The notes beneath the pieces are model-generated. The model did no database searches, had not been told where the DNA came from, and worked only from the letters and a program-made list of their open reading frames with translations. DNA of 55,403 nucleotides, taken from NCBI GenBank assembly GCA_902627635.1, contig CACOKA010000002.1:1-55403 (forward strand), written 5' to 3'. The position numbers and the translations under genes were made by a program. Below are positions 21,157-53,568 of the stretch, piece after piece (position 1 is the stretch's first letter; each line of letters starts with the position of its first letter). The stretch is from an uncultured Candidatus Actinomarina sp. (lineage in GTDB: Bacteria > Actinomycetota > Acidimicrobiia > Actinomarinales > Actinomarinaceae).

Positions 21157-21779
21157 AATTTTAAAAAAGGACTCTCTTCAAAAAGTTTCGCTTGGGCATC
21201 AACAAGATTTTTCTTTATTAATTCTTCAGCATCGAAAGTTAAATTTCCCCCTCTTGATTCAAGATGTCCTGTTTTTCTAAATATTTTATCTGGAACTTTT
21301 TTTAATAATCTTTTAAATACTTCTTCAGAAACTCTTAAATATTTTGCTAGTGTTAACTCTACTTTTATTGATTCCGGAATTACATTACATGCAAAAACAT
21401 ACAAAGATCCAAACATAGACCAATCAAGATCACTAGGTCTTCTGGATTTTTCATATACAGAAAAATCATATTCTAAAAATGAATCAAATGGTGAATAATT
21501 AAACGTTGCTTTGTCACTTAACTGCTTAAACAAAAATCTATCAAGAAGTTTTAAATCCAGACTATTTAAGGTTTGTTCTAACCCAACTTTTGAAAGAGAT
21601 AGTTCATCTTCAAGGTATTTTATTGACAAATCATTAATTACAATCTTTCCGAAATAATTTACAATTTTAACTTGTACATTTACATTTTTAGGTACAAAAA
21701 TTAATCCATCATTGTCCTCAAAACCAATTGAGATACTTAGTTCTTCGTCTAATTCAAAAGTTTGTTTATCAATTTTCAT
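21132..21779 (-). CDS. Hypothetical protein
   Basis: 215-aa ORF with no motif I recognise. Its 3' end overlaps the convergent 20713 gene by 25 nt. Confidence 0.5.
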   Translation of the reverse strand: MKIDKQTFELDEELSISIGFEDNDGLIFVPKNVNVQVKIVNYFGKIVINDLSIKYLEDELSLSKVGLEQTLNSLDLKLLDRFLFKQLSDKATFNYSPFDSFLEYDFSVYEKSRRPSDLDWSMFGSLYVFACNVIPESIKVELTLAKYLRVSEEVFKRLLKKVPDKIFRKTGHLESRGGNLTFDAEELIKKNLVDAQAKLFEESPFLKFHSGSDLV

Positions 21780-21828: not shown

Positions 21829-22169
21829 GGGGGTGAACTGGCTTCGACTTTGAAGCGAGCCTCTCAGTAGCGAGCTGAGGGTCCTAGGGCCTCATTAAAA
21901 ACGTAGGAAAAAAAAGATAACTGCCAAACCTAAATTGGCCGTAGCAGCTTAATTGTTGCTCGTCGACTATCGGGGCTCCCACCTCGGATAGTATCGGCGT
22001 CGAAATGTGGGATGCTGAGTTAGATTACCGGCTAGCTTTTAAGATTTAAGGTAAAAACTATTGAGAATTTGTTTCTGGTGACTCTCTCAATAGTATTTCA
22101 CCAGATGCGCTCGGAGAAGCTGTTGGGTAGCTTAAAAGGACCGGGGTTCGACTCCCCGCACCTCCACCA
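21829..22169 (+). ncRNA. ssrA: tmRNA (SsrA)
   Basis: The 5' end GGGGGUGAACUGGCUUCGAC pairs with the 3' end ...GCACCUCCACCA, with G3:U in the acceptor stem. T-arm is GGGGUUCGACUCCCC. The internal tag frame ends ...AKPKLAVAA-TAA (21923-21952). Confidence 0.9.
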
Positions 22170-25596: not shown

Positions 25597-26988
25597 ATGA
25601 GAAAATACCTAAATTATTTACTAGTAATCACTTTAATATCTAGTTGTGCATCGGAACCCGAGTCCCGAAATCAAGTTATTGAGACTACTTCTATAATTAC
25701 TTCTACAACTTCTTCTTCAACTTCTACAACAGTTCAGAAAGTTAAAGAAGATATTTCATATGATGAGTTTGGAATTGAATTATTAGATGTAAGTCCTGAG
25801 ATGAAGGAACAATTTGATGAGCTTGTTAAATATGTTGAAAAAAAGACAGGCTTATCGTTTGTTGAGTATCCAAAATTTAATTTATATACCCTAGATGGGT
25901 ACAGAGATTATAACGCAGCTTCATACCTTGATGATTTTGATAAAGATTATGAGGAGGGTGAGTGGGAAAGAGCTGTTTTATCAGAGAACATGTGGGGGTT
26001 AATAGAATCTACGCCAGAAAAAATGAAAGAACTTATTGTAGAATTTCAAAGGTGTGCTTCAGCTGGATCATATAATTTACTTGATCAAATTTTAAGAGTT
26101 CCAGTAGAGAAAAATCAAAAAAAATTAAATCTTTGGGAGCAATCTGTAATTGTACACGAGTTGGTACATTCACTTCAGGGTCAAATAGTTGGTCTTTCAG
26201 ATTGGTATAGCACTATGAAAGAGAATGACGATTTTATGGATTATCCGGGAAGAAGATCAATTATGGAAGCTCAAGCAGACCTTGTACAAGGTTATTGGAT
26301 GGCTGAGCTAGATTTCGATCAAAGACAAGACATGACATCTCAACGACCAAACTTTAGATGTTCGGTATCGCTTCCGGCTTATTTTTATATTCCATTTGAT
26401 CTTTATTATGATTTTGGAGGTCGTTTAGGTAAACAAATTCATACTATGGAAAGAATGGAGGGACTTAACAAGGCATTATTTGAATTACCTACTGCAGAAC
26501 AAGTGTATTCGCCTGAAAAATATTTTTCTAAGGAACCATACATTGATGTTGATATCCAGACACTCGAACTAAATGAATTCTCAGTAATTGATGAGGGGCA
26601 ACTTGATTCATTAGATCTTGTATATCTATTACAAACAAAAATTGGTCAGAATGATGCTGTAAACGCAGCAATCGGATTAGGTGGTGGTTCGTGGGTTGAT
26701 TACATTAATGACAAAAACGATTTATTTATGACTGTCAAAATACAAGGAGATGATATTAATGAATTGAATGAAATCTCGAATGCTTTTCAAAACTGGGCTG
26801 ATTTTCAATCAAGATTTACTAAGAGATCAAACAATTCAAGTTGGAATGGAATCTTATATGAAGGTGATACAAATTTTTGGATTTACAATGATGGAAACTA
26901 TTTAAGATTAGCACTATCAAACGATCAAGAATTTATTATTGATTTCCTTAGTGAATGTACTTCTGACCAGTGCAATACCAACTTTTAA
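25597..26988 (+). CDS. Putative lipoprotein with an HExxH motif
   Basis: Lipobox LISSC, a Thr/Ser linker (TTSIITSTTSSSTSTT), and an internal VHELVHSLQG. Confidence 0.6.
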   Translation: MRKYLNYLLVITLISSCASEPESRNQVIETTSIITSTTSSSTSTTVQKVKEDISYDEFGIELLDVSPEMKEQFDELVKYVEKKTGLSFVEYPKFNLYTLDGYRDYNAASYLDDFDKDYEEGEWERAVLSENMWGLIESTPEKMKELIVEFQRCASAGSYNLLDQILRVPVEKNQKKLNLWEQSVIVHELVHSLQGQIVGLSDWYSTMKENDDFMDYPGRRSIMEAQADLVQGYWMAELDFDQRQDMTSQRPNFRCSVSLPAYFYIPFDLYYDFGGRLGKQIHTMERMEGLNKALFELPTAEQVYSPEKYFSKEPYIDVDIQTLELNEFSVIDEGQLDSLDLVYLLQTKIGQNDAVNAAIGLGGGSWVDYINDKNDLFMTVKIQGDDINELNEISNAFQNWADFQSRFTKRSNNSSWNGILYEGDTNFWIYNDGNYLRLALSNDQEFIIDFLSECTSDQCNTNF

Positions 26989-30456: not shown

Positions 30457-30531
30457 TGGGGGATGGTGTAATTGGCAACACATTGGGTTTTGGTCCCAAC
30501 GTTGAGGGTTCGAGTCCTTCTCCCCCAGCCA
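30457..30531 (+). tRNA. tRNA-Gln (anticodon UUG)
   Basis: Cloverleaf drawn by hand. Acceptor UGGGGGA pairs with UCCCCCA. Anticodon stem TTGGG/CCCAA has loop TT-TTG-GT, with the anticodon at 30490-30492. T-arm is GGTTCGAGTCC and CCA is encoded. Confidence 0.9.
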
Positions 30532-34715: not shown

Positions 34716-35654
34716 ATGTTAAGAAAGTATTTTGTTGTCTTAATCTTGTTAGCTGCATGTTCACAAAATGTAGACACCACAACTCAAGAAATTACTAATA
34801 ATGGTGGTGGACAAAATGTTGATGATTTGGATTTAGAAACTGACAAACTATCAACAACTATTCAAGATAATTTAAAGCAAGCAGCTGACAGAGCTTTAAA
34901 ATCTCTTGACAGATTAATTATTGAGGATCCTCTAGCTGCTTCTAGTTCCACAACTCCTACAACTATTCCAGTCACTTCATCCACTACTATTCCAGAAACT
35001 ACTTCAATACCAATAACTACTGAAACTCCACCACCGACAGATCCAATAGAAAATATAATTACAATGCATACACCTTCTGAAAGAATTGGAACACTCTACG
35101 AAAAATTTGGATATAAAGATTTTATTGATCGATTTCCTGGCTACGAAGGAGATGAAAAAGCAAATTTACTGATTCAAATTGCTGTAAATCAATTACCAGA
35201 TACATTTAGAACAATGATTAAAGAAGAGATAATTGTTCTCAATGGCTGTCATCCATATGGACAAAAGCTCTTTGATAAATGCGTATATGGAGTTTTTGAT
35301 CCTGTTGGTTATGACGGGGAAGGTAATTATGGAAACGATTGGTCACAATCAATTTGGATTTCAGATAGAGGTCTTACATCTGGATACTTAAATGACATAC
35401 TTCTTCATGAATCAGCTCATGCGTATTCATTTTTAACATTGAGAACATGCAAACTCCCAGGTGGGGAGAGTTATAGAAACTTAGCCCATGAAAAATTTGG
35501 AGGAGAGGAAAATTTAGCTGATATTTTTGTTTACTATTTTGGAGGTAAATGGACAAACTACATAGATTTAGAGATTTTATCAATGAGTGATCGTAAATGG
35601 ATTGCTGAAATGATTTCATATTGCGATTTATATAAATTAGAGAAAAATCTTTAA
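34716..35654 (+). CDS. Lipoprotein with a Thr/Pro-rich linker and a Cys-rich HExxH domain (paralog of 53558-54427)
   Basis: Lipobox LLAAC, linker SSSTTPTTIPVTSSTTIPETTSIPITTETPPPT, and domain motifs NGCHPYG...CVYGVFD...LLHESAHAYSF. Confidence 0.65.
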   Translation: MLRKYFVVLILLAACSQNVDTTTQEITNNGGGQNVDDLDLETDKLSTTIQDNLKQAADRALKSLDRLIIEDPLAASSSTTPTTIPVTSSTTIPETTSIPITTETPPPTDPIENIITMHTPSERIGTLYEKFGYKDFIDRFPGYEGDEKANLLIQIAVNQLPDTFRTMIKEEIIVLNGCHPYGQKLFDKCVYGVFDPVGYDGEGNYGNDWSQSIWISDRGLTSGYLNDILLHESAHAYSFLTLRTCKLPGGESYRNLAHEKFGGEENLADIFVYYFGGKWTNYIDLEILSMSDRKWIAEMISYCDLYKLEKNL

Positions 35655-39091: not shown

Positions 39092-42000
39092 ATGTTGTTG
39101 GGTAGTATGAGAAATAAGTACATTTATTGGTATTTAAATTTTGCGTCTTATATTAACTCGTCAACTATCAAAAAAATACTCAAAACAACAACTTACATTG
39201 CGTTATTTTCAATTGTATTTATCACTTCTTGGGCTGTGCCGCAAGAGGAGGCAAGTGCAAACAGTAACTGGCAATGTAACGATGCATATGCGAGAGCATA
39301 TTTTTATAAACTAGATTGGGATTATTCCTCTACTAGTTTCACTATTGATCAATATGTTGCAACAGAGACAACAACAATCCAGCGTACAACAGTTACTGTT
39401 GACTTTAGTTCAACATCCAATATTGCTGGAACGGTTAAAGGTATTAACGCGTTGGCGATGTCACCAACAGGGGTTATGTATGTAACCATAACTTCCGACG
39501 GGCATGGTACACATCTCTTTACAATTAATCGAGATACGACAACCAGCACAACAGCAACACTAACTCCACTAGCTCATATCGCAGACTACCAACAAGTCGG
39601 TGACAATAACTTTTATAGTGGTGTAAATGGATATTACGGGTTTTCATCAGGTGATTATGTTGTAAATGCCAACGGTAATGACCAAATTTATATGGCTCAG
39701 GCTGGTTTTGAGCATGGTTATATTTATAACGTTGCTACTGGTGGTGTGACAACATTTTCTGATCCAGGAATGGTCACCCCTATTAATGCCGCTGACTTTT
39801 CTTACATTGGAAGCTGGGATGGATATGAAATAGCAACATACAATGCGTTAGCAAATAAAGTTATACTCTACGACAAAGACAACAACACTATCTCTGAAGT
39901 TACGCCAACGAACTCTGCATTTTCTAATGTCTCAGCGACATTAGCTAGCTACAGTTACAAAACTCCAGAAGGAGAGATCCGTTTTATCATTGATGACGGT
40001 CTTGGTAACAGGTTTGAAGTAAAACGATTAGGCACTAATTCATATACAGTTGAACAAAAAGGAACAACATTTACTACAGACAACTCCGATGGTGCATCTT
40101 GTGGACCTAATGCATATGATCCATTTGGACCTACGTTTAAAACATCACTTGGCACCTGTGCTAGTGGTTACCAACAGCCATCTTTGCTTATTACCAACAA
40201 CAGAGGAACAACTCAGTACTTTGATGTACAGTACAGAATCTCCGGAGGTTCTTGGGTTGATCTATTAAATGGAGAAGAGATTACTCCAAATGGGCAGTTC
40301 CCCGCGAGTGGTATACCACAGGTATACAGTGGACAGACGGTCGAGTTCCAAATGCGGTACGGCTCATCTAATCCATCATCTGGAAATTTCTACACAGTCG
40401 GAGACCTTCTAACAGGTTCAGGTTGCGGTGATTATGCAGCTGGTACGGTAAGTACTTCTGCTGGAACATGTGATGGAGGATCCTCTACACCTTCAGTGAC
40501 ACTCACAAATACTGGTACAGTAACTACATATTTTGATGTGCAGTACAAGATTGGAAATGGGTCTTGGACAACATTCATTGACGGCGAGGCCGTCTCTGCA
40601 GGATCTCCAGAAACAATCTCTATGCCTGTCTCAGTTATAAATGGTCAACAAGTTCAGTTTCAATATCTTTTTGCCAACGCTAATCCAACAGCCACAACAG
40701 GATTTACTGCAGCCACTTCAAGAACGATAGATTGTCCAACATATTCAGCTACCATAACAGCTACTCCTGGAGCATCATGTACTAACGATTTTTTGTATCA
40801 CACTGTAACAGTAAATAATACTGGAAACACAACAATGTGGTTTGCAGTCGCAGAGAGAGACTACCGAGGTAACGCAAACTTTGATTGGATAGATTCACAA
40901 AGACAAATTCCTGCCGGAGAAAGTGCTGTATGGAACACAAGACTTGTATACAACGGTACAACTCCAGAGTACAAGATGGTGTATGGAACTTACAGATATC
41001 AGTACCAAGCTACAGATCTATCAAACGTGGGTCACACTGAAGGTACGTTTACGCAGAGACAAAATGGTAGTTATTTAAAATCTGGAGATAGTTGGGTTAG
41101 ATGGACCGCAAATAGCCCAGTAGATTGTGATTGGTGGGGTAATGGTGGAGCTGGGACAAACAGCAGTAATAATTATACTCTTGTAAGCCAGTCTACTAGT
41201 CAGATTTGTGATGGATCAGGTAATGCAACTATAAGACTAACTGTAACAAACTTCAATGCGTCAAACGATGCATACGCTGGTTTTATAGATGTTCAGTGGT
41301 CGACAAATAATACGAACTGGGTAGATGTAGTCGATGGTCGGGCATTAGCTGATGGGGAGAGTATCACTTTTGAATCGCCTGAACAGATAGCAACCTCCTC
41401 CACAGGATATTTTAGGTATCGAATTGCTGCGACAAACCCAACTGACTCTACAACAAATGCATCTTGGGCAGTATTTAGTAGAGAGGCAAACTGTATTGCT
41501 AGTTACTCACTATCAGCATCATTTAGTGAATGTTCAGCTACTGGTCAATACTCTACACTTTCAATAACCAACAACGAATCCCAGACTCTGTATTTCAGAG
41601 CAGTTCCTACAAGAAACGATACATATTATGATTACAGCTCAGCTAACGGTTTGAATTATGACTTTAATAGCGAAGCAATTACATTCTCTGTTCCGGCAAA
41701 TTCTACACTTACATATGATGCATCAAACAGTCCAAATATGAGAAAGCTTTACCCTGATGGAGCTTACGGATATATGCAGTGGATTGTGCAGGGCTCTTAT
41801 ATTGAGACACCGGATTGGACCAACACTACGGCGTATCCGTATGAACTCACTAACGGTCAAATACATCAATGTATACCAGATATCACTGCAAGTTATGATG
41901 TTACCGCCTGTAGCTCAGCTGGACAGACATCAACGTTGACAATAACCAACAACGAATCACAAACAATTTATTTTAAAGTTAACCCATCAAGAACTGCCTC

Positions 42001-45000
42001 AACACTCAGCGGAAGTTCTTCCTATAATTTGAACTACTTGACGTCAGATGCCACGACATTCTCAGTAGCTGCTAATACTACATATGTACACACTTCTGGT
42101 GCAAAAAACTATGCGGTTAATGAAGACGCTTACATGTTCTGGAGGATTCAAAAATCTTATTCAGAGAATCCAACTTGGAATACGCAAGCTTATCCTTATC
42201 AGTATTTAAGCTCTCCAACAAGTGGGTTAAGTTATCATCATGACTGTGATCTAAATGTAGATCCACATAATGACTACAATTATCAATACGAAACAAGACC
42301 TTCTAACGAACAAAATAGTTGTGTAGACAACAAGCAGTGGATGGGCTGGGTCTTGTATAACCAAAACTATAATGATGCCAACAGAACATCTCTGTGGTAT
42401 GCATTTGAGGTTTCAATTGATAACGGTGCCAATTTTAATACCAATAATCTTTTTTATAGAATGGATGATACTTTCCACGACAATGATTACTTCGCTGTAA
42501 ATAACGGTTCAGGAAGTCTTTCAGCTGACGGATACACGGCAGTTCAAGCAACAAATAATCTAAATATGGCAAATTCATCTAATAATCGGTACATATATCT
42601 TTCAACTAGGGCTGTATCAGGATCGATTATGAAAATAAGGTATAAAGTAGCGTATGCAGAGAATGAACTTGGCACAACTGAATGGATAACACTTGGAAAT
42701 CACAATAAAACTACAGAACAGAGAACTACTGATTGTGAACCTGAAATAAATTCATCTGGATGGGGAACAACTACTACTACTGATTCTGCAAACGATACTT
42801 TCAGCGATCTTGTTACTATTGGCGAATGTCAAAATACAATTGAAACTGGCGGTTTTGCACTCTCTACACTCACGCTTACAAGACCAAGCGGTGTGCAATA
42901 TTATCTGAACCTTTGGCAATCGACAGATAGTGGAAGTAACTGGACACCTATTGAAACTAATTATGCAATGGGTTCTACCTATACAAAAGAATTAACAGTT
43001 AATCATGCAGGCAAAATTAAATATAAATTTCAGTTCTCCTATATAAGTGGAGATTTCTCAAATTCTAATACCTATTATTCAGCGGAAAAGACAGTTAACT
43101 GTCCAACTGTTGGAGCTAGCACAGCATCTATTGCTTTAGGAACATGTGTAACTGGTGGTGCGACACCGACCATTACAATTGGCAACAATGGTTGGGCTAC
43201 TGGTTATTTTCATATACAGTACTCAACCGATCTGGGGCAAAACTATACCGACGCCTTCTATGATCCAAATAACGGTAACGCCACACTCTATCAGATGATT
43301 CTTCCAGGTGAGGTTAAAACATATACCATACAGGATACAATTCCTCAGGGTACGACAGTTGTTATGCAGTACAGATACGCAGCAACATCACCACCTACTG
43401 GTGCCTTCACCACCACGAATACAGTATTGATCGACTGTTCCTCTGATGTATCATCCGTAACATTTGAACAAAATACAACACCAGAACAATGTTTCAACGG
43501 TTCACAACAATTAAGGATAAATTACACGAACTCTTCTAGTACTACTAATTATTTTTATTACAAAATAAATAAGAATAGCCAGGGTTATGATACGAACTGG
43601 TCTGTCGCTACATTAAATGCAAATACGAGTAACGGTTCGGTGACTCTTCCAGAATCTTACGGAGACAATGATACTGTATTGATTAAATATCACATTGAGA
43701 GCACAGAAGGCGGATCATACGGTACAGAAGTTATAAATGATTTAATAACGATTGATTGTGGTACAGAGGACTTTTTTACAGTAAGTACAGATTATGTATC
43801 TTGTAACCTCTATGGAGCTGATAAGTTAGAGTTTAAATTTCAAAGAAACAGTACTTCAGCATCCTTTAATTACAATTCATACATTCATATAGAAGCTGAA
43901 ATCTCACATGATGGCAACATATGGAAACCACTGGGCAGAATGCAGTATTCAAACCAAAGTACCGGTAGTTGGTTCTCTAGCTCTGGAACTAAGGGAAATT
44001 TAAACGATACTCACCCTACATACTGGGGATATATTAGGCCAAGTAACTTTAGCACTGGTCATCATGTATCCGGCGTAATTCTTACTGACTCAACACATCA
44101 GTACCAAATAAGATATAGAACATATTCCTCAACGACTAACAACCTTACTATGGGTAATTTTACTGGGGTCTTTACAACATTAACTATCCCAGCAGATACC
44201 AATTGTGATCAGAATGATGTAGAACCTGTCACACTTATTACTACGCAGTTGACTTGTTTAGAAAATAAAGGACAGGTTGAGTTTACGTTTAATGACACTA
44301 CGGTTACCCATTTAGATCCTTATCAAGCTGCAAGACTTTTCTATCAATACTCAACAAACGGGGGTGTTACGTGGTCTAAACATATAGATCAGAGAGCGGC
44401 TTTATCTAATACGACAACTATTAATTTGCCAGGTGTGAAAGTAACAAATGGTACTGTGCTAAAAATGAAATGGGGTTACGTAAGAGATCATTCCATGCCT
44501 TATACTTCCAATTCTTATACGACGTATCACAACACCTATTCAAGTTCAAACCTCAACGCAAGGCAGTTTGACTATATAGGCGGTTTGACAAGTACAGGGT
44601 CATATTATGAGCACTATAGAGTTGATGATTCTTCAAATGAATTCAATGCTAATTTCATGAGCCATAATATGGTCAACACAGTAGATGTAAGTGTTGATTG
44701 TGATCCGGACTCAACTTACTCTCAAACATTAACGACTTGTGAATGTAATGATTTGGGAGCAACCTCTACATTAGAAATTACAAATAATGACAACTACACC
44801 TCTTACTACAAGGTGGAATACAAGATTGGAAATGGTCAGTGGGTATCAGCCACGGATTCCTTAGAATCTGCCTTCGATATTTCGGTTAGTGGTGGCTCGA
44901 CTAATGATAGTTTGTCAAAATTTGTTCCAGATGGAGAGACCATACAGTGGAGAATAAAAGACACAACTAATGGTGGTGACTTTGATGGTCAAGAGTGGGA

Positions 45001-48000
45001 AGAAGTAACTGCTAGTGCAACAATTGATTGTGGTTGTGCAGGCGGTTCAGTAGATATAAACGTAGGCACCTCAACTTGTGGAAACGGCTCTTCTACACCA
45101 ATCATAAACCTAGTTCCATCAAGTTCTGACACAGCTTATTTCACTGTTCAATACAAGAGAAATACTGATAACGACTGGGTTTCATTTAAGACATCGGAAT
45201 CTGTAACAAATGGACAAACTGAAAACCATACTATGCAAGTCACTGTTGTGCACCAGGGAACAATCCAAGTTCGTTATAAAGTTAATAAAATTTTGAGTAA
45301 CTTAAATGCACAGGAATGGAATTACACGGATACAAAGACAATCAATTGTCCTTATAGTTTAGTAACAGTAGAAGCACAATATTCAAGTTGTGGATCGAAT
45401 TTCAGAGCAGCAACATTTAAGGTAACTAATACCGGCGCTTCTACATCTGCTGCTAAATTCCGTGTTCAGTACAAAATTGTGACGCCTACTACAACAGTCA
45501 CAGATTGGACAAACTCCTCGTTAATAGATACTGTAGTTGCTCCAGGAGCCTCCCAGGTAAGTTCAGATAATATACAAATAACTGAAGGACAGAAAATTAT
45601 CTGGAGATACGAATCTGTCAATACTTCTGCAGACTTCTTAAACAACTGGACAGAAGATGATACAAGTGGTTATGTGAACTGTGTAATAAATGTAACAGTC
45701 ACTAACTCAATGGGTTCTTGTGATAACGGATCTCAAACAGCGACACTTAATGTAACAAATGATGAAACAAACAATACTGTTTATTTCAAGGTTCATTATA
45801 AAACTGGCAATACTTGGATTTTAAAAGATCCAAATTTAGAAGTTGGTTCCAGTTTTACAAATAGAACATTAACTGTTGATGTTCCACATGATAAAAATAT
45901 TCAATGGAAATATCAGGTTAGTAATACACCTAATGATTATGCAAATGCGGAAGTCGTAGAACTCACGGCTTCAGCTACTGTTGATTGTGTAATTCTTGAT
46001 GCAACCGGGTCTTCAGCATTTGGGTCCTGTATAAGTGGTCAAAGAAGATCAACTTTTACTATGCAAAACTCTTCTTCTGCCAATGATGGAGCATACTTTT
46101 ATGTTCAATATGATTTGAGTGGCGATAATCAATCTTGGCAGTATCACACGAGCGGCCAAGCAAATTTCGTAGGTGTGGGAGCGCAAAATGTCATACATCA
46201 AAGCGTCCCTAATGGAGAAACAATTCAATGGAGATACTATCCAATGACCTCAGCTACAGCTCCTGCTGAAAGTGACTGGATAAATGAAAGTACTCAAACT
46301 CCAGAGGATTGCTCACTAGATACACTCATCAGTCATACATTAGATACATGTATAAGCAATAGCCAGGTATCTAATTTTGTCTTAACCAACAACACGGCTG
46401 GAGAGGTACATTATCATGTCCAGTATTTTATTGAGGGTACCTCAGCATATGCTGACGCAGATAATGACTTGATACTTTCCGCAGGTTCACCACAGGGATT
46501 CACACAGACTGTAGCTTCTGGAAAATATATCCAATGGCGTTATAAAGCAGCAACTTCTAATGCTGGTTTGGCATCTGCAACCTGGGTTGATCACACTGAC
46601 AACTCCGCATTTAAAAAGACTATAAATTGTGAAAACATTGATCCGAGTGTTGTTCAATCATTTGGTCTTTGTTATAACGACACAAAGAATGTGAAGTTCA
46701 TAATAAAAAATAGCTCAAGCGCTACAACTTCAGCATATTTCAAAGTTCAGTACAAAATTGGTTCTGGAGAATGGATTGATAAATCAGACCAAGAAATAAG
46801 TGTAGGTGGTCAATTTTCACATTCACAAAATGTTCCAGCTGAACAGACGATACAGTGGCAATATAAAGTTGCAAAAACTCAAGCAGATCTTCCAACTGGA
46901 TGGACAACTTTAAATGCGACAACTATTACCTGTAATGGTGAAGATATCTCTATTACAATGGATCCCGCCTGTGATGCTAATGGCTACAAGACCTCAAAGT
47001 TAAATATATTCAACTCAAGTTCGGGAAATTTATACTATCAAGCCCAATACACATTTGAAGGAGCTAATAGCAACAACTGGACTACTGCAGCTGAACAAGT
47101 TGTGGTATCGACTGGAAATTCAACATTCGTACCAATATCTGTCCAACAGGGACAAGCAATAACGTGGAGATACAAAGTCTCTGAAACGGGAAATGATTTT
47201 GATTCTTTAACCTGGACTACACCACCGACCTCAGAGGTAGTCGATTGTACAGGGGTAAGTATTTCGACTCCATATACTTCATTAAGTCAATGTGTCTCTG
47301 GTGCAAAGACTTCAACTTTCAACTACTCCACATTGTCAAATAGCGCAAACGCAGCTTATTTCCACATACAATACAGAATTGATGGTGGAGCATGGATTAA
47401 TAAAGTAACATCCTCTGATGGAACGCTTGCTGCAGGGCAGTCTAATTCGGTTACACACTCTGTAACCTCTGGTAGTACTATCGAATGGCAATACAAAGCT
47501 GCTTACAACACCACAGCTTTAACAAATGCAAGCTTTATTTCTCTTGCAGCAGGAGCTGAAGAGGTTGATTGTGGAGTCCAACTAACAGTAAGTCATGGAT
47601 TCAGCACATGTACAAATCAAACAGCAACTTCTACACTTTTATTGAAAAACACAGGTGCAACCCCAATGCTTGTTACGGTACAATCTAAACTCAATACTGG
47701 AGATTGGGCTACCGAAGTATCGACATTTGAAATAACTGCTGGTAATGAAATATCGTTAGACAAAACAATAGTAAGTGGTCAAACGATTAGCTGGAAGTAT
47801 AAATATGCTGGAACGGTCGTAAAACTTACATCTGCATCAGAGACAACAATGGACACGATACCGGCACTAGATTGTGAAACACCTATTCTTAATCAAGTCG
47901 CTGTTAGTAATGTTCTTAAAGAGTGTGTTGCAGGAAAGAGAATATCAGAATTAACATTTACAAATAACTCAAATGAGACAGTGTATGTTGAGGCTTTGTA

Positions 48001-50329
48001 TGACACAGGGTCCGGCTACCTTCTTAAAGGAACTTATTCTGTTACTAATGGAACCCCAATGGTCCTGGAGTCTCCTAGCGTTCTTAGTGGTTCAAGTGTT
48101 AAATGGAAATATCGATTGGGACTTTCCAGTACATTAACTGGAAACTATACAGAGCTCGAAGCTTTATCGGTTAGTTGTATACAGACATCTGACGTTACAG
48201 CTGCTTTTGACGCTTGTACAAATCTAACCAGAGATTCCAGAGTCACGATTAAAAATACTGGATCATTAACCCAGTATTATCAACTCTTTTACTCAATAAG
48301 TGGTGGTTCTTATCAATTCCTAACAGAGGTAACTGTTGGAGTAAATCAGGAAAATACTTCTAATTATCAAAATTTAACCTCTGGACAATATATCAACTGG
48401 AAATGGAAGTCATCTATTGTTCAAGGTGATTTTGCTAATTCACAGGATAATTTCCTCACAAGATCTACGTCAGTGAACTGTATCGATGATAGCTTGTCAG
48501 CATCAGCAACCCCCACGTGTACCCCAAATGGAGCTACCTCAACGAAGACATCTGGATTTACAATTACAAGTAGTTCAACCGACTCAAAACAAGTTGAAGT
48601 TCAGTATTCAACAGATAGTGCTACCTATCTTGCAATGGGTACACATACTGTTAGTAGTTTGCAGCCGTATGTAGATAGTAGACCATTTACTACAAACTAC
48701 TACACCTATAGATATCGAATTTCTGGCACAACAAATTGGTCTCAACCAGTAGTCAGCGTAGCTCCATCAGACTGTTCTATAGTTACAAATGTTATCAGTG
48801 CATACAATACAAATGAATGTGTAGATGGTAGCTCATTTGCTAAATTGTCTATTGTTAACCCCGGTCAAGTTGCAACTGTAATTTATGACATCAATATCAA
48901 TAACGCAGGTTGGCAGAGTGTTGGATCACCCTCTGTAAATGGTACGTATACTTCACCTGGAGGAGTAAAAATACCAGCAAATACTCCTTTCCAATGGAGA
49001 TACAAACTAGCTACTGATACAGATTATAAATTCGTTCCCGGCACAGGAGACGACTGTTCTCAAGCTAACGCAATTACTGCTGTTACAGAAATTATATGTC
49101 CTATTGACACCAGTAGTAAATCAGCAAAATTGCGAATTATAAATGTTGGGCCTCAATCAGTTAGTGCGATGTACAACTACTCCATCAATAATGGACCTTC
49201 ACAGTCTGGTCCAGCACCGGTTCCAATAAATCCAACTTCATCGAATTACTCTATTGAAGTTCCTTTAAATGATGGAGATCAAATTGTATTTGAATATAAG
49301 CTCACAAGTGACGCAAGCTATCAACAAACACCGGCTAAATCAACTTCAGAATGCGGAGATGGTTTAATCTCAAATCCTCAATTGATTCAAACTATATCTG
49401 AATGTACTGAAAGTGCTGCCGTATCTACAGTAGAAATGAGAAACCTATCTGATCAAGTTAAGACATTTTATCTTGAATATAAATTAAATAATGGACCATG
49501 GACTAGCTATGACACAGTCACAGTTAACGCATCAAGTCCTGTAACGAGAAAATTAACGGTATCTGACAATACGACTATACAGTGGAGAGCAGTTGAAAAT
49601 AGCTTTACACAGTTCGACCTCAACTCTCCTTATCAGTTATCTCAAGCAGAAACAGTTATATGTCAGTCAGTCACTACTACAACATTGCCACCTGTGAAAT
49701 ATATATTCGAGCCAATTGTCTCAACTAACAGGGTTTGTGACTTCGAAGACGGTGGAGCAGAGTTTGGTATTACAGTAGATAATTCAAGATCTAATGTTTC
49801 TGCAAAAGTACTTAAGAAAATCTGGATCAACACAACACTCATTGCTCAAGAGACTGTCAACGTCCCAGCAGGCCAAACAATAGATTTCTCCTCTATAGAA
49901 GTAGGAGAAAATAAATTCTTTACAGTTGCTCTTGAAGTAACAAACAATGAAAATGGTAAAGTTCAAAAAATGATTAAGAACAAGGATGCTGATTGTATCG
50001 AAGATGAGCGTCCAATTAATGAGGAACAGAATCCTATCGATGAAGTAGAAGTTACTGAAAATACAGATAATGTTATGGAAGGTGATGGCGACGATCAAGA
50101 AATGGAGGATAATGGTGAATCACTCTTGTTCCTTCCAGGTGATGATTTCGTTGAATTTGTTTATATAGAGGATGCATCGAATCCATTTACACCACAATTT
50201 ACTGATGATTCCCCTCCAACACCAGGAATACCATTTACAGGTCGAAATGTTGGTGGTTTAATCATTTCATTTGGATTGATGCTAATCGGATTTGGTGCTT
50301 TTATACTAAGAAGAGCATTCAAATTTTAG
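39092..50329 (+). CDS. Giant (3745 aa) sortase-anchored modular cell-surface protein
   Basis: Uninterrupted 11.2-kb ORF. It has an N-terminal hydrophobic signal-like segment, a ~280-aa unique domain, ~29 Cys-bracketed modules, an acidic stalk, and a C-terminal IPFTG plus hydrophobic stretch plus RRAFKF. Confidence 0.9.
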   Translation: MLLGSMRNKYIYWYLNFASYINSSTIKKILKTTTYIALFSIVFITSWAVPQEEASANSNWQCNDAYARAYFYKLDWDYSSTSFTIDQYVATETTTIQRTTVTVDFSSTSNIAGTVKGINALAMSPTGVMYVTITSDGHGTHLFTINRDTTTSTTATLTPLAHIADYQQVGDNNFYSGVNGYYGFSSGDYVVNANGNDQIYMAQAGFEHGYIYNVATGGVTTFSDPGMVTPINAADFSYIGSWDGYEIATYNALANKVILYDKDNNTISEVTPTNSAFSNVSATLASYSYKTPEGEIRFIIDDGLGNRFEVKRLGTNSYTVEQKGTTFTTDNSDGASCGPNAYDPFGPTFKTSLGTCASGYQQPSLLITNNRGTTQYFDVQYRISGGSWVDLLNGEEITPNGQFPASGIPQVYSGQTVEFQMRYGSSNPSSGNFYTVGDLLTGSGCGDYAAGTVSTSAGTCDGGSSTPSVTLTNTGTVTTYFDVQYKIGNGSWTTFIDGEAVSAGSPETISMPVSVINGQQVQFQYLFANANPTATTGFTAATSRTIDCPTYSATITATPGASCTNDFLYHTVTVNNTGNTTMWFAVAERDYRGNANFDWIDSQRQIPAGESAVWNTRLVYNGTTPEYKMVYGTYRYQYQATDLSNVGHTEGTFTQRQNGSYLKSGDSWVRWTANSPVDCDWWGNGGAGTNSSNNYTLVSQSTSQICDGSGNATIRLTVTNFNASNDAYAGFIDVQWSTNNTNWVDVVDGRALADGESITFESPEQIATSSTGYFRYRIAATNPTDSTTNASWAVFSREANCIASYSLSASFSECSATGQYSTLSITNNESQTLYFRAVPTRNDTYYDYSSANGLNYDFNSEAITFSVPANSTLTYDASNSPNMRKLYPDGAYGYMQWIVQGSYIETPDWTNTTAYPYELTNGQIHQCIPDITASYDVTACSSAGQTSTLTITNNESQTIYFKVNPSRTASTLSGSSSYNLNYLTSDATTFSVAANTTYVHTSGAKNYAVNEDAYMFWRIQKSYSENPTWNTQAYPYQYLSSPTSGLSYHHDCDLNVDPHNDYNYQYETRPSNEQNSCVDNKQWMGWVLYNQNYNDANRTSLWYAFEVSIDNGANFNTNNLFYRMDDTFHDNDYFAVNNGSGSLSADGYTAVQATNNLNMANSSNNRYIYLSTRAVSGSIMKIRYKVAYAENELGTTEWITLGNHNKTTEQRTTDCEPEINSSGWGTTTTTDSANDTFSDLVTIGECQNTIETGGFALSTLTLTRPSGVQYYLNLWQSTDSGSNWTPIETNYAMGSTYTKELTVNHAGKIKYKFQFSYISGDFSNSNTYYSAEKTVNCPTVGASTASIALGTCVTGGATPTITIGNNGWATGYFHIQYSTDLGQNYTDAFYDPNNGNATLYQMILPGEVKTYTIQDTIPQGTTVVMQYRYAATSPPTGAFTTTNTVLIDCSSDVSSVTFEQNTTPEQCFNGSQQLRINYTNSSSTTNYFYYKINKNSQGYDTNWSVATLNANTSNGSVTLPESYGDNDTVLIKYHIESTEGGSYGTEVINDLITIDCGTEDFFTVSTDYVSCNLYGADKLEFKFQRNSTSASFNYNSYIHIEAEISHDGNIWKPLGRMQYSNQSTGSWFSSSGTKGNLNDTHPTYWGYIRPSNFSTGHHVSGVILTDSTHQYQIRYRTYSSTTNNLTMGNFTGVFTTLTIPADTNCDQNDVEPVTLITTQLTCLENKGQVEFTFNDTTVTHLDPYQAARLFYQYSTNGGVTWSKHIDQRAALSNTTTINLPGVKVTNGTVLKMKWGYVRDHSMPYTSNSYTTYHNTYSSSNLNARQFDYIGGLTSTGSYYEHYRVDDSSNEFNANFMSHNMVNTVDVSVDCDPDSTYSQTLTTCECNDLGATSTLEITNNDNYTSYYKVEYKIGNGQWVSATDSLESAFDISVSGGSTNDSLSKFVPDGETIQWRIKDTTNGGDFDGQEWEEVTASATIDCGCAGGSVDINVGTSTCGNGSSTPIINLVPSSSDTAYFTVQYKRNTDNDWVSFKTSESVTNGQTENHTMQVTVVHQGTIQVRYKVNKILSNLNAQEWNYTDTKTINCPYSLVTVEAQYSSCGSNFRAATFKVTNTGASTSAAKFRVQYKIVTPTTTVTDWTNSSLIDTVVAPGASQVSSDNIQITEGQKIIWRYESVNTSADFLNNWTEDDTSGYVNCVINVTVTNSMGSCDNGSQTATLNVTNDETNNTVYFKVHYKTGNTWILKDPNLEVGSSFTNRTLTVDVPHDKNIQWKYQVSNTPNDYANAEVVELTASATVDCVILDATGSSAFGSCISGQRRSTFTMQNSSSANDGAYFYVQYDLSGDNQSWQYHTSGQANFVGVGAQNVIHQSVPNGETIQWRYYPMTSATAPAESDWINESTQTPEDCSLDTLISHTLDTCISNSQVSNFVLTNNTAGEVHYHVQYFIEGTSAYADADNDLILSAGSPQGFTQTVASGKYIQWRYKAATSNAGLASATWVDHTDNSAFKKTINCENIDPSVVQSFGLCYNDTKNVKFIIKNSSSATTSAYFKVQYKIGSGEWIDKSDQEISVGGQFSHSQNVPAEQTIQWQYKVAKTQADLPTGWTTLNATTITCNGEDISITMDPACDANGYKTSKLNIFNSSSGNLYYQAQYTFEGANSNNWTTAAEQVVVSTGNSTFVPISVQQGQAITWRYKVSETGNDFDSLTWTTPPTSEVVDCTGVSISTPYTSLSQCVSGAKTSTFNYSTLSNSANAAYFHIQYRIDGGAWINKVTSSDGTLAAGQSNSVTHSVTSGSTIEWQYKAAYNTTALTNASFISLAAGAEEVDCGVQLTVSHGFSTCTNQTATSTLLLKNTGATPMLVTVQSKLNTGDWATEVSTFEITAGNEISLDKTIVSGQTISWKYKYAGTVVKLTSASETTMDTIPALDCETPILNQVAVSNVLKECVAGKRISELTFTNNSNETVYVEALYDTGSGYLLKGTYSVTNGTPMVLESPSVLSGSSVKWKYRLGLSSTLTGNYTELEALSVSCIQTSDVTAAFDACTNLTRDSRVTIKNTGSLTQYYQLFYSISGGSYQFLTEVTVGVNQENTSNYQNLTSGQYINWKWKSSIVQGDFANSQDNFLTRSTSVNCIDDSLSASATPTCTPNGATSTKTSGFTITSSSTDSKQVEVQYSTDSATYLAMGTHTVSSLQPYVDSRPFTTNYYTYRYRISGTTNWSQPVVSVAPSDCSIVTNVISAYNTNECVDGSSFAKLSIVNPGQVATVIYDININNAGWQSVGSPSVNGTYTSPGGVKIPANTPFQWRYKLATDTDYKFVPGTGDDCSQANAITAVTEIICPIDTSSKSAKLRIINVGPQSVSAMYNYSINNGPSQSGPAPVPINPTSSNYSIEVPLNDGDQIVFEYKLTSDASYQQTPAKSTSECGDGLISNPQLIQTISECTESAAVSTVEMRNLSDQVKTFYLEYKLNNGPWTSYDTVTVNASSPVTRKLTVSDNTTIQWRAVENSFTQFDLNSPYQLSQAETVICQSVTTTTLPPVKYIFEPIVSTNRVCDFEDGGAEFGITVDNSRSNVSAKVLKKIWINTTLIAQETVNVPAGQTIDFSSIEVGENKFFTVALEVTNNENGKVQKMIKNKDADCIEDERPINEEQNPIDEVEVTENTDNVMEGDGDDQEMEDNGESLLFLPGDDFVEFVYIEDASNPFTPQFTDDSPPTPGIPFTGRNVGGLIISFGLMLIGFGAFILRRAFKF
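40100..49996 (+). repeat. About 29 divergent protein-level tandem modules (roughly 95-190 aa each) delimited by Cys residues
   Basis: Hand count of the recurring pattern C-x2-G-x2-[ST]-x-[LF]-x-[IV]-x-N...YF-x-VQY-[KR]-x3-G-x-W...G-x2-I-x-W-[RQK]-Y-[KR]...[DN]-C, from Cys337 to Cys3635. I saw no long identical DNA repeats. Confidence 0.7.
50228..50326 (+). other. Cell-wall sorting signal (IPFTG, hydrophobic segment, basic tail)
   Basis: IPFTG-RNVGGLIISFGLMLIGFGAFIL-RRAFKF at the extreme C-terminus, with a sortase gene immediately downstream. Confidence 0.7.
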
Positions 50330-51988
50330 ATGGCATATTTTTTTATATATTTACTGATAATAATTATCAACATCTTTGCTGTTCTATTTGTATTAAAAAT
50401 TAGAAGAAAAAGATCAAATGATCCAGATGTCATTTCAGATGCAACACTTTTAGAAGAAAATTCAATCGAACCAATAAAAGCTAGAAGGCCTTTTTCACGT
50501 TTCAAAAAAGAAGATCCTAGTACAAATATTTTTGTTGAATATGAAGAAATTGAAGAAGATGTAGCTGAGCAAATATTTGATGGTAAATTTCTAGATATTG
50601 CTGTAAGCGAAAAAATTGTAACAAAAAAAGGTAATTGGTTTTTATATGGTGAAGAAAAACTCGGGTATGGCAAAGAAAAAGCTAAATTATATTTGCTTGA
50701 GAATCCTGATATAGCAACTGAAATAAGGGATCAATTAAGTAGTGCGAAAGAAATAGAAAATTTAATAAACCAAAAAGACTTAAAAAAAATAAATTCTGAT
50801 GATTCCGGAAATGAAATAAATCTATCTTCAGACGAAATTGAAAATCAAAAATCGCTAAGTTATGTTAATCAGAATTTTGAAGTAGAACTTTCAGAAATTT
50901 ATGTAAAATCAAATATTTTAAAAAAAGTTCTTGAGAATGCTATCGGCACAGAAGTTATTATCAGTGTAGACGTAGGTGAGAGATTTAATCCTTTAATTGC
51001 TGAGCCTGATAATTTCACAGAAGACATCATGACAATGCTAAAGGAGATAGACTATCTAACATCTGCAGTCAAAAATATATCTAAAAATGCAAAGTACTTA
51101 GGAGTTGATGTAACAAAAGAAATGTTATTAGAAAAGTTGGCATTGATGACATCTGATCGATTTTCTATTGTCTTTTCAAAAAAACCAGTTGAGAAACACA
51201 GAAACATTCCAAGACTTAAATTTGATTTACCACTAAAAAAAAACCGAAAACAAAGAGAAGTAGCAGAATCTAAAAAATCATTTGAAAGTACAAATACAAG
51301 ATCACTTCTCCCACTTGGTGTAGGTCTATTAATAGTTGGTTTTTTAATTTTGATTTATTCAATTAATCAAACATTTTTTTCTACTTCAGTGATAAATGAT
51401 GAGCAATATCTATTAGAAAATAAATTTAATGTTAGTGATGTTAAACTTTCTGAATTAAGAAATAAAAACATCGCGACTGATAGTTCATTAAATAATTTAT
51501 CTCAAACAGATGAATTTCAAGAGTCTGTCATCTCAATTGCAACAAAAACACTTACTAATCAAGCAGCAAAGGCAAAGTTTCTTCCAGATGTTGTTGGAAG
51601 GTTAACAATCCTATCTGCAAATATAAATCATTATGTAGTCTTTGGGGCAACGAGTAACAAATTAGAGTATGGACCCGGTTATATACTTGGAACTGCACTT
51701 CCAGGTTCGGGAGGAAACTTCGCAATTGCTGGACATAGAACTACATATGGTGCACCTTTCGGCAATCTTGATAAAGTTCAGATTGGTGAAACAATAATAT
51801 TCCAAACAAATACAAATCAATATGAATATCGTGTTGTAGATGTGAAGATCGTCTCTCCCGAAGATAATTATGTACTTGAGAACTATGGTGACGACAGAAT
51901 AACGTTAACCACATGTCACCCAAAATTCTCTGCAAGAGAAAGGCTTGTGGTTATTGGACAACTGGAAAGGGTAGAGGTATTTGGATAA
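50330..51988 (+). CDS. Sortase-family transpeptidase with a long N-terminal extension
   Basis: The C-terminal ~190 aa carry a sortase triad context: AIAGHRTTYGAPF (His), ITLTTCHP (Cys529, nt 51914-51916) and ARERLVV (Arg). Two TMs sit at about aa 3-24 and 327-350. The ATG directly follows the giant-gene stop. Confidence 0.85.
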   Translation: MAYFFIYLLIIIINIFAVLFVLKIRRKRSNDPDVISDATLLEENSIEPIKARRPFSRFKKEDPSTNIFVEYEEIEEDVAEQIFDGKFLDIAVSEKIVTKKGNWFLYGEEKLGYGKEKAKLYLLENPDIATEIRDQLSSAKEIENLINQKDLKKINSDDSGNEINLSSDEIENQKSLSYVNQNFEVELSEIYVKSNILKKVLENAIGTEVIISVDVGERFNPLIAEPDNFTEDIMTMLKEIDYLTSAVKNISKNAKYLGVDVTKEMLLEKLALMTSDRFSIVFSKKPVEKHRNIPRLKFDLPLKKNRKQREVAESKKSFESTNTRSLLPLGVGLLIVGFLILIYSINQTFFSTSVINDEQYLLENKFNVSDVKLSELRNKNIATDSSLNNLSQTDEFQESVISIATKTLTNQAAKAKFLPDVVGRLTILSANINHYVVFGATSNKLEYGPGYILGTALPGSGGNFAIAGHRTTYGAPFGNLDKVQIGETIIFQTNTNQYEYRVVDVKIVSPEDNYVLENYGDDRITLTTCHPKFSARERLVVIGQLERVEVFG

Positions 51989-53568
51989 TGAAAAAACTAA
52001 TTATTTCATTAATCTTTTTCTTTTCTTTTTTTAACGGTGTATACCCCAATGGATATTTAGATACAAATTTACATGATACTGATGAAGCAACTATTGAAAT
52101 AGAATCTGCGAGATTAGATGAAAATAATTTACAAATTTCATGGTTAGTTAGTGGTCTTGAAAATATTGATGAATTGATTATTTCAGTTCGTGAACTTACA
52201 TCTGATGGATTGCAAGGAGAACCATTGGAGATTATCGATTACTCTGAAAAAGGACAAGAAATTATTCAATGGGATGGGACTACAGATCTTTCGATAACTT
52301 TAAAAATTTTATCAACAAACTACACACAATATAGTGGACCGGACTGCGCTTCGGTTTATTGTTATAGAGATATTACTACTGAAATTACTTCAGATGAGTA
52401 TATAATTAACAAAATTCCTGATCTTCCTGTAATAACTACTACTGTTCCCGTCGATGATTTTATTATTGAAGAAACAGCAATTGATACATCAACAAATATA
52501 ACATTCACAAATGAGCTTATTACAACTATTCCACTCTTCAGTGATATTGATTTTTCAGATCAGGCTAAAAATGCTTTTGCATTTCTTATAACTTCTGGAA
52601 TTATATTTCTATTTTATGGAGTTTTACTAGCCCAGGAGTGGTTCAACAGAATAATTGCACACTATAGAGTCAGGTGGTCAAATCGTGAAAGCAAATTAAG
52701 AAATAAAACAAGGCTTGAGATAGCAATGGAGATAACGCTTGTGGCTCTAATTACATCTCTCTTGTATGCATTTGTTGAGGAGGGCTTCACATTTCAAGTA
52801 CGGCAAGAGAATTTAGCAATTTTTGTTGGTGTATTATTTGGACTAATTATTGTTACCTTCTTTTATGAGGGTATAGAATCTCTAATTGAATATTTTCTGT
52901 ATGACCAAATTGTGAAATTTGATTGGAATCCACAAGCCATGTTTTTTGCAGTACTCTCAACAATACTCTTCATTGTTATTGATCTTCCTTTTGGATTTAT
53001 TCTTGGTTTTATAGCAGCAATACATGTAGTTTCGAAGAGACCAAAAGCGGAATTGTCACCTAAATTTTATTCAATGATAAGTCTTTCAATTGTTGGATAT
53101 TTCTTCTTCTACGCAACATCATTTGAATCGGTTAGCTCTTCAGGTGTTTTAATGGCAATTTGCAAACTTACTTACTTAATGTGTTTAGAGGGAGTTATAT
53201 TTAAAGCAGTTCCTTGGGGAGGGAATGAGTTATTTGATGCAATTGGTGACTCAGATGGAATTTATCAGGCAATGCCAATTGTTAGCTTTTTGATAAGTAT
53301 CTGGCTATTTATAAGAATTCTTGTCTTACCACCTGACAGTGAGTTTAATGAATTACAACAAACTTTATTACAGAGTGGAGAGCTAGCTTACAGATTCATG
53401 CTTGTTTTATTAATTTATATATTCATAATTTTACTACTAGGTAACTTCATGAAAAAATATGCTGAATTGAATAGGCCTGCTGACTATGAAGAAAGTTTAA
53501 AGATTGATGATGAAGAAATTATAGATTTAATTGATGATGACCTTAGCGAATCAGTAAATGAGTGGTAA
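51988..53568 (+). CDS. Polytopic membrane protein with a signal peptide and N-terminal ectodomain, unknown function
   Basis: I prefer the ATG at 51988 (MKKLIISLIFFFSFF, a signal-like start; TAATG overlap with the sortase stop) over the listed 51913. A ~200-aa ectodomain is followed by about 7-8 TMs and an acidic tail. Confidence 0.6.
   Translation: MKKLIISLIFFFSFFNGVYPNGYLDTNLHDTDEATIEIESARLDENNLQISWLVSGLENIDELIISVRELTSDGLQGEPLEIIDYSEKGQEIIQWDGTTDLSITLKILSTNYTQYSGPDCASVYCYRDITTEITSDEYIINKIPDLPVITTTVPVDDFIIEETAIDTSTNITFTNELITTIPLFSDIDFSDQAKNAFAFLITSGIIFLFYGVLLAQEWFNRIIAHYRVRWSNRESKLRNKTRLEIAMEITLVALITSLLYAFVEEGFTFQVRQENLAIFVGVLFGLIIVTFFYEGIESLIEYFLYDQIVKFDWNPQAMFFAVLSTILFIVIDLPFGFILGFIAAIHVVSKRPKAELSPKFYSMISLSIVGYFFFYATSFESVSSSGVLMAICKLTYLMCLEGVIFKAVPWGGNELFDAIGDSDGIYQAMPIVSFLISIWLFIRILVLPPDSEFNELQQTLLQSGELAYRFMLVLLIYIFIILLLGNFMKKYAELNRPADYEESLKIDDEEIIDLIDDDLSESVNEW

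Follow-up and report, generated by a model that had tools for sequence, protein, structure and literature searches.

Why a streamlined 1.1-Mb genome keeps an 11.2-kb gene, with all of its modules conserved, in a region of core housekeeping genes is a question of ecology that is raised by a locus of an uncultured Candidatus Actinomarina sp. (assembly GCA_902627635.1, contig CACOKA010000002.1). The window, that is the whole stretch of DNA that was analysed, is 55,403 nucleotides (nt) long, and the gene in question is a giant open reading frame (ORF) at 39092..50329 on the + strand. It codes for a protein of 3,745 amino acids (aa) made up of a signal segment, a head, 29 cysteine-bracketed modules, an acidic linker, and a sorting signal. 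The host is a marine bacterium of an abundant ocean lineage and of low GC (guanine plus cytosine) content, and the genomes of Candidatus Actinomarinales are of about 1.1 Mb (PMC7771536). Based on the results described below, we think that the gene probably codes for a fibrillar surface protein that has a fixed length and is anchored by a sortase, and in which a disulfide-stapled, immunoglobulin (Ig)-like stalk presents a conserved, propeller-like head.

The cysteine-bracketed repeat and its conservation

The giant protein has 62 cysteines and their positions are far from random. From Cys337 to Cys3635, which takes in 61 of the 62, short gaps of 13-31 residues alternate with long gaps of 79-148 residues, and this divides the protein into an array of 29 modules of 94-165 aa each at 40100..49996 (+), which is exactly the span that an earlier note on this DNA had given for the repeat. 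Short-then-long gap pairs follow one another 28 times in a row, whereas in 20,000 trials in which 62 cysteines were placed at random the mean was 2.7 such pairs and the maximum was 11. The earlier note was less exact about the modules themselves. It had put their length at about 95-190 aa, and the actual range is the one given above. It had also proposed that each module ends in Asp-Cys or Asn-Cys, which holds at 23 of the 30 boundaries and not at the remainder, although the three examples that it quoted are all found in the sequence. Among the modules that were said to carry large insertions (7, 8, 11, and 12), M7, M11, and M12 are long but M8, with 122 aa, is no longer than M3-M6.

The modules are related to each other in sequence as well. 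In BLASTP, 21 of the 29 had a partner at an expectation value (E) below 1e-3, with identities of 25-45%, the best pair being M5/M6 (E=4e-25), and a hidden Markov model (HMM) built from 16 core modules matched in almost every module. When each module was aligned with its two orthologues and compared by leave-one-out hhalign to the core profile, 25 modules reached a probability of at least 93% and M12 reached 82%. Kinship to the core profile was not demonstrable for M7 (163 aa; 42245..42736, +; 20%), M11 (149 aa; 43757..44206, +; 1%, that is, no detectable homology), and M29 (49661..49996, +; 9%), which have only the cysteine bracket in common with the others. The strict tally from these profiles is therefore 25 modules, M12 at its lower score, and three cysteine-bracketed segments of uncertain kinship; the count of about 29 modules in the earlier note stands for the bracket but not, in these three, for homology. 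The motifs that it had described as recurrent do recur, a YFxVQY-type motif in 10 modules and an IxW[RQK]Y-type motif in 12. A DNA repeat search of the gene found no module-length tandem array and no long identical repeats; the only repeats at the DNA level were echoes of 18-39 nt at 61-91% identity, and because of this the module copies must be old. Both the internal repeat and the age and divergence of its copies, as they had been read from the sequence, are thus borne out by the comparisons of proteins, profiles, and DNA.

Could the pattern be a compositional artefact of an ORF rich in Thr, Ser, and Asn, or could the gene be dead? The composition is indeed biased (T 12.8%, S 11.0%, N 8.4%) but the cysteine periodicity is far above chance, matches between modules reach E values as low as 1e-25, three genomes have the ORF in intact form with a ratio of nonsynonymous to synonymous substitution (dN/dS) of 0.18-0.27, and a confident AlphaFold model was obtained. 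Together these results refute such an explanation, to which we give hardly any credence.

Orthologues were sought by scanning GTDB species-representative genomes with a single query of 1,261 aa from the M13-M24 region. Two full-length relatives were found, in 'uncultured Candidatus Actinomarina sp. AH-287-A16' (L002; 66% best-segment identity over M13-M24) and in 'Acidimicrobiaceae bacterium AH-736-J19' (L003; 95%). They are intact ORFs of 3,742 and 3,745 aa, respectively, in the same gene neighbourhood, and their exact sequences are absent from the protein collection that was looked up. The same gene, broken by frameshifts, lies beside the same sortase in two long-read assemblies (L001 and L006); in L006 the sortase is 52% identical, yet M13-M29 are in the same order. 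All 62 cysteines are conserved in the orthologues, in which modules are down to 41% identical, and this upholds the bracketing of the modules by cysteines that the earlier note had described. Identity to L002 is 87% in the head, 96% in M29, and 41-87% in the other modules. The module nearest the cell wall, M29, is the most conserved (96-100% identity) and the head is the second most conserved part of the protein. The gene is under purifying selection. Its overall dN/dS is 0.18-0.27; the head has values of 0.03-0.06, M29 of 0-0.03, and the stalk modules of 0.1-0.7, and no stalk module has a dN/dS above 1. Each of the 29 modules is individually conserved, which is new for a protein of this kind. 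The dS per module is very uneven and ranges from 0 to 0.5, which hints at a recombination mosaic within the gene. M3 (40733-41128) stands out in the comparison with the 95%-identical orthologue L003, being 77% identical with a dN/dS of 0.68 while its neighbours are 91-95% identical.

Two contigs of 2.7 and 4.4 kb, L004 (WTIV01000120.1) and L005 (CAXDOW010000147.1), hold fragments that are 79-92% identical to the giant gene and are filed under metagenome-assembled genomes of a 'Methanobacteriota archaeon' and a 'Flavobacteriales bacterium', respectively. A wider taxonomic spread on the strength of these two was rejected; short contigs with such high identity are probably mis-binned. The giant gene is almost always fragmented in short-read assemblies. 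Many of its fragments in the databases (P0001, P0003, P0004, P0009, P0011, and P0012) end in LSLIHI, CLLYTSPSPRD, VSYTHLTLPT, and the like, and these ends look like translated sequencing-adapter sequence.

Fold, family, and proposed disulfide pairing of the modules

The fold of the modules was predicted with AlphaFold2 on the tandem M19-M20, using an alignment of six other, non-overlapping tandem pairs. In the model, which has a mean predicted local distance difference test score (pLDDT) of 80.7, each module is a sandwich with six clear strands and an irregular seventh; the strands assigned by DSSP are at 12-22, 25-34, 42-50, 61-63, 68-76, and 80-88, with short bridges at 99-105. Foldseek matched this model with a probability of 1.0 and E of about 1e-6 to the tandem fibronectin type III (FnIII) domains of RbmA of Vibrio cholerae, to transglutaminase C-terminal beta-barrels, and to Tie2 FN3. 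Like these FnIII/Ig tandems, the modules are seven-strand-type sandwiches joined head to tail. They differ from them in sequence (6-15% identity, no fn3 match) and in having a conserved cysteine bracket, and the template modelling (TM) score of the matches is about 0.3, which is low for the tandem pair because the inter-domain angles differ. The predicted fold is thus an ordinary FnIII/Ig-like one and the resemblance is at the level of the fold, while the sequence family is unnamed.

That the modules belong to no named domain family, as the earlier note had stated, agrees with all the searches. Pfam and NCBIfam gave nothing credible on the whole giant protein, Pfam fn3 (PF00041) did not match it at E<=1, and the module profile found nothing significant among PDB sequences (best E=0.1). 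In an exhaustive search of 1.84 billion cluster representatives the profile matched only 288 proteins at E<=1e-3, 103 of them at E<=1e-10. The strong matches are fragments and shorter relatives with the same cysteine spacing, and in the distant homologues P0016, P0027, and P0051 neither modules nor heads were matched by Pfam; in P0017 a fused Sortase domain was the only match. The weaker matches are other giant surface proteins, some of them rich in fn3. Remote matches that contain fn3 (P0053 and P0093) cover only parts of the profile and were set aside as fold-level or compositional similarity. On the evidence of these searches the modules form a new, unnamed, lineage-restricted domain family, rare as it is, and the 288 matches are enough to seed a new Pfam entry, with which the many metagenome fragments of the gene could be annotated.

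Several of the weaker matches raise the question whether the modules are very diverged members of families that already have names. DUF7507 (CLIPPER_2, PF24346) and DUF11 (CLIPPER, PF01345) are isopeptide-bond stalk domains of fibrillar adhesins (PMC12617251), and the module profile finds the DUF7507/DUF11-rich giants P0096, P0157, and P0077, which have the same 13/96 cysteine spacing, with E of 1e-7 to 1e-13. Like these domains, the Actinomarina modules are units of about 105 aa, arranged in tandem in giant surface proteins, with a 'VxxGxxVxWxY...C-x13-C' block and, as we propose, with a covalent intradomain cross-link that stabilises the stalk. Of the named families, DUF7507 is the closest in sequence. 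In hhalign, the modules aligned with it at 90% over 43 of 106 columns, and tandem units at 92.6% over 175 columns, but per-column confidence was near zero outside the 'VxxGxTIxWxY...C' block. Moreover, neither the DUF7507 nor the DUF11 model matched the giant protein in hmmscan at E<=1, and the folding units are in different registers. In DUF7507 units C-x13-C forms a hairpin inside the unit, with PGE as its central turn, and the arrays run on for about 45 aa past this hairpin to end after 'SHYxG', whereas the Actinomarina array ends at the closing Cys3635 with no cysteine beyond it, and AlphaFold models the segment between the two cysteines as the first strand (A) of the module that follows. 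A Lys-Asp-Asn isopeptide triad is a feature of the CLIPPER families (PMC12617251, Table 1). Among the 26 homologous modules there is no column in which Lys or Asp reaches 50% or more, the near-invariant or invariant columns being only three cysteines and one tyrosine, and therefore the modules have no such triad. We thus regard it as improbable that the modules are DUF7507/DUF11 domains in disguise; going by profiles and predicted structure they do not belong to that family and are at best distantly related to it. The earlier note had named a clean match to a known domain such as DUF11 as the result that would remove the novelty, and the relation that was found is remote, confined to one block, and out of register.

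The cysteines of a module could pair across the short gap or across the long gap. According to the model, the most likely arrangement is a single disulfide per module, between the second cysteine, at the end of strand A in the A-B turn, and the closing cysteine, which is the last residue of the module. The segment from the first to the second cysteine is modelled as one continuous strand of 11 residues hairpinned to strand B; therefore these two cysteines cannot meet and they would lie more than 30 Å apart. The model is confident about a strand A that is followed by the rest of its own module, and the pLDDT falls below 50 for a strand A that is not. A seven-strand sandwich has its A-B turn at the same pole as the end of strand G. 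A parity argument points the same way. With long-gap pairing all 62 cysteines have a local partner, 62-337 closing the head and 3549-3635 closing M29, and there is no cysteine past 3635; with short-gap pairing Cys62 and Cys3635 are left over, 3,573 residues apart. The same argument holds for the 1,661-aa homologue P0016. In 375 module instances that were compared for co-loss of cysteines, the apparent losses were alignment-end effects. Only two cysteines are extra to the pattern and both are in module 13 (44699..45031, +), one of them two residues after its second cysteine (1883/1885) and the other two residues after its closing cysteine (1980/1982). This CxC...CxC pattern is kept in the divergent orthologues P0031 and L006, and the extra pair would form a second, parallel disulfide. 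It had been suggested that the second cysteine opens the next module and that there is one disulfide per module or per linker. In the AlphaFold model the second cysteine ends the first strand of the module, and for this reason the disulfide is most likely per module and not per linker.

In isopeptide-locked Gram-positive pilins such as Spy0128, the bond ties the first strand to the last and keeps the protein from being extended by force. The logic that we propose for the Actinomarina stalk is similar in that a covalent bond between the N-terminal strand and the C-terminal end would short-circuit the force path, and it differs in the chemistry, which would be a disulfide as judged from the pairing argued for above, and in that a single polypeptide carries 29 domains in place of polymerised subunits. 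Between one staple and the next there would be nothing but a strand A of about 13 residues; tension would therefore be carried by strand A and the S-S bond, with about 85% of each module bypassed, and the stalk would be nearly inextensible and protease-resistant. The disulfide staple would in this way do the job that intramolecular isopeptide bonds do in CnaA, CnaB, and CLIPPER stalk domains, and the DUF7507/DUF11 domains, which combine an isopeptide bond with a local cysteine hairpin, would differ in having no disulfide from the A-B turn to the C-terminus. Covalent stabilisation is common in the stalks of fibrillar adhesins (PMC12617251) and oxidative folding of exported proteins through MdbA is known in Actinobacteria (PMC9974433). 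What is new is the apparent lock: in place of an isopeptide bond, each module would have a single disulfide between its A-B turn and its C-terminus. This suggests that bacterial stalk domains can be locked covalently by disulfide staples in place of isopeptide bonds.

Head, anchor, and probable role at the cell surface

The N-terminal export signal region (aa 1-56; 39092..39259, +), as read from the sequence, has a basic KKILK, a hydrophobic stretch TTTYIALFSIVFITSWAV, and then ASA followed by NS, with a putative cleavage site after ASA; the signal-like segment is kept in the orthologue fragments P0162 and P0163. The head domain that follows (aa 57-336; 39260..40099, +) is all-beta, with about 20 strands in an AlphaFold model of low confidence (pLDDT 59, predicted TM score (pTM) 0.61). 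It has no Pfam match. The top matches of the model in Foldseek are propellers, namely, the PknD sensor, Kelch, Pizza6, and PLL lectin propellers, with TM scores of 0.37-0.47, and the head is probably a six-bladed beta-propeller. Its sole cysteine, Cys62, probably pairs with Cys337, and a gap between cysteines of 268-288 residues is kept in the distant homologues P0016, P0017, P0021, and P0027.

At the other end of the array there is an acidic, Pro-containing linker (aa 3636-3712; 49997..50227, +) in which 25 of 77 residues are Asp or Glu and which is probably the segment that spans the wall. It is followed by the sorting signal (50228..50326, +), which consists of IPFTG (50228-50242), RNVGG, a hydrophobic helix LIISFGLMLIGFGAFIL, and RRAFKF. 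The giant protein thus has the tripartite C-terminal signal of an LPXTG-like motif, a hydrophobic segment, and a basic tail, although the Pfam Gram_pos_anchor model does not match it. Relatives have LPETG (P0014), LPGTG (P0066), or FPRTG (L006) at the position of the motif.

The sortase gene (50330..51988, +; 552 aa; Pfam Sortase E=1.5e-29) starts one base after the stop of the giant gene, and a sortase is directly 3' of the giant gene in the four related loci L001, L002, L003, and L006. Its product has a first transmembrane helix, a region of about 300 aa that is presumably cytoplasmic, a second transmembrane helix, and the catalytic domain (aa 425-545) with the motif TLTTCHP. An AGHRTT motif is visible as well, and the product thus has the catalytic His/Cys/Arg of a sortase. 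Because its score is below the cutoff of every NCBIfam sortase class, the best match being class E with 114.9 bits under a cutoff of 160 bits, it was not assigned to a class. With the signal-like segment at the N-terminus, the IPFTG motif with its transmembrane segment and Arg-Arg tail, and the adjoining sortase gene, the extracytoplasmic location that the earlier note had deduced for the modules has gained support.

Residues 85-137 of the sortase, in the region between the two helices, resemble the C-terminal domain of RecA (Pfam RecA_C E=1.2e-17, TIGR recA E=4e-10). The inter-helix region is 78-82% identical in L002, and the pairing of RecA_C with Sortase recurs in relatives down to about 50% identity, in 32 proteins in total in a search of 5.8 billion. 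We know of no described sortase that has a RecA_C-like domain. In the distant homologue P0017 (1,471 aa; region of interest at residues of about 1060-1471) surface protein and sortase are in a single ORF: a head, about six modules, an M29-like module, 'ITMADTG', one transmembrane helix, and RYRKRR are followed directly by the cytoplasmic region and catalytic domain of the sortase. Either this is a true fusion of substrate and sortase or a stop codon was lost in assembly.

Giant, repetitive, sortase-anchored surface proteins are a kind of protein that is already known. By the definition of fibrillar adhesins in PMC8286594, the surface anchor is there (IPFTG, transmembrane segment, Arg-Arg tail, and adjacent sortase) and so is the tandem stalk of 29 modules; as for the adhesive domain, the head is without a Pfam match and its low-confidence model resembles six-bladed propellers, lectins included. 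The giant protein is like the known sortase-anchored fibrillar surface proteins in its likely signal peptide, its N-terminal non-repeat head, its tandem beta-sandwich stalk, its sortase signal with an adjacent sortase, and in having a stalk that evolves faster than the head. It is unlike them in that its stalk domain is in no Pfam or NCBIfam family and its head in no known adhesive family, its repeats are 25-45% identical, individually orthologous across genera, and fixed in number, and its host is ultra-small, free-living, and oceanic and not host-associated.

The adjacent sortase gene and the sorting signal would also be expected if the protein were a subunit of a sortase-polymerised pilus. 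This is very improbable because the whole protein has no YPK(N) pilin motif, the one sortase has its best match in the housekeeping-type class E and not in the pilus-type class C, the single substrate gene codes for 3,745 aa, and there is no second pilin-like gene in the operon, the two ORFs downstream coding for a multi-transmembrane protein and for a protein with a transmembrane helix, a Thr/Ser tract, and an HExxH motif.

For a single anchored fibre we propose the following sequence of events. The N-terminal signal-like segment would direct the protein to Sec export, and it would undergo oxidative folding outside the membrane. The adjacent, dedicated sortase would then cut at [ILF]PxTG, for which both motif and gene are present, and join the protein to peptidoglycan. 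The acidic linker would cross the wall and the 29 Ig/FnIII-like modules would form a rod, estimated to be about 100-120 nm long at about 4 nm per module, that holds the propeller-like head off the cell. The protein would serve as a fixed-length tether or adhesin that shows its head to a ligand on a particle, on an algal or bacterial surface, or in a polymer. Binding of a ligand by the head is a guess.

There are several points that weigh against this proposal. The IPFTG motif is not canonical and the sortase scores under all class cutoffs; the model of the head, as said above, is of low confidence and has no match to an adhesive domain family; and the pairing of the cysteines rests on arguments from topology and parity. 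The Candidatus Actinomarinales have been described as plankton with a strictly free-living habit (PMC7771536), and this is awkward for an adhesin. Typical fibrillar adhesins have near-identical repeats in variable number, whereas the giant protein has a fixed number of modules, each of them conserved in its own right.

In an alternative explanation the same architecture would serve as a non-adhesive, fixed-length spacer or coat of the envelope, a sparse 'fur' against phages, the receptors of grazers, or other cells, or one that changes drag or the diffusion boundary layer; the head would be structural or a decoy. The number and order of the modules are strictly kept and so is the length (3,742-3,745 aa), which points to selection on length, and the host is planktonic and free-living (PMC7771536). 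Evolution is much faster in the stalk, where dN/dS rises to 0.7, than in the head, and the uneven dS per module suggests a recombination mosaic as expected for exposed surfaces under pressure from phages or grazers. On the other hand, the dN/dS of the head, 0.03-0.06, together with a fold of the ligand-binding type, fits specific binding better than a passive spacer, and dN/dS does not exceed 1 in any stalk module. We consider a spacer or coat unlikely, though by no means negligible, and retain the anchored fibrillar protein with a binding head as the probable one.

One can go further and suppose that the 29 modules are non-interchangeable and, chained by disulfide 'short-circuits', form a rod of fixed length, an inextensible tether made in a so far undescribed way with disulfides and not isopeptide bonds, by which the host docks at a set distance to a partner. 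We regard this as doubtful. If it is true, the rod would measure about a third to half of the cell diameter in a host that ranks among the smallest free-living bacteria of the sea, and Candidatus Actinomarina would be free-living only in part; its partner could be, for example, picophytoplankton, particles, or gels. Whatever its function, it is also new that an ultra-streamlined planktonic host spends about 1% of its genome on one giant gene. The words sortase, giant, adhesin, and LPXTG are absent from the Actinomarinales genome paper (PMC7771536), and a literature search found no paper that combines Actinomarina with sortase.

Neighbouring genes and other features of the window

After the sortase gene come two ORFs that overlap in operon fashion, and both are kept in L002, L003, and L006. 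The first (51913-53568, +) codes for a protein with a signal peptide, about 200 extracellular residues, and a multi-transmembrane half, with a weak match to 'FGLLP motif-containing membrane protein' (6e-11, below cutoff). The product of the second (53558-54427, +) has a transmembrane helix, a tract rich in Thr and Ser, and, at its C-terminus, a domain that contains LLHETSHAL (HExxH), and from this motif it may be a tethered metalloprotease. Both may be accessory factors for the giant protein. On the 5' side of the giant gene are hom, thrC, and a gene for a TetR-type regulator, and a scan for promoters and terminators upstream of the giant gene gave results no better than shuffles. The rest of the window is core housekeeping and includes secA, ahcY, glmU, prs, prfB, ftsEX, smpB, and the gene for transfer-messenger RNA (tmRNA).

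The GC content is 37-41% in the giant gene (window 40001-50000) and 30-33% in the surrounding core genes. This difference probably comes from the Thr/Ser/Gly/Ala-rich composition of the protein; the synteny of the gene across several genera speaks against a foreign origin.

The tmRNA gene is at 21829-22169 (+) and encodes the tag peptide AKPKLAVAA; smpB is not far from it (16038-16472), and a gene for tRNA-Gln(TTG) is at 30457-30531 (+). Four ORFs of 732, 463, 312, and 215 aa, at 2483-4681 (+), 25597-26988 (+), 34716-35654 (+), and 21132-21779 (-), respectively, had no Pfam match at the thresholds used; the one of 732 aa lies beside genes for a GtrA-like protein and a GT2 glycosyltransferase. 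At 614-2201 (-) there are genes resembling cofE (F420-0:gamma-glutamyl ligase) and cofD of F420 biosynthesis.

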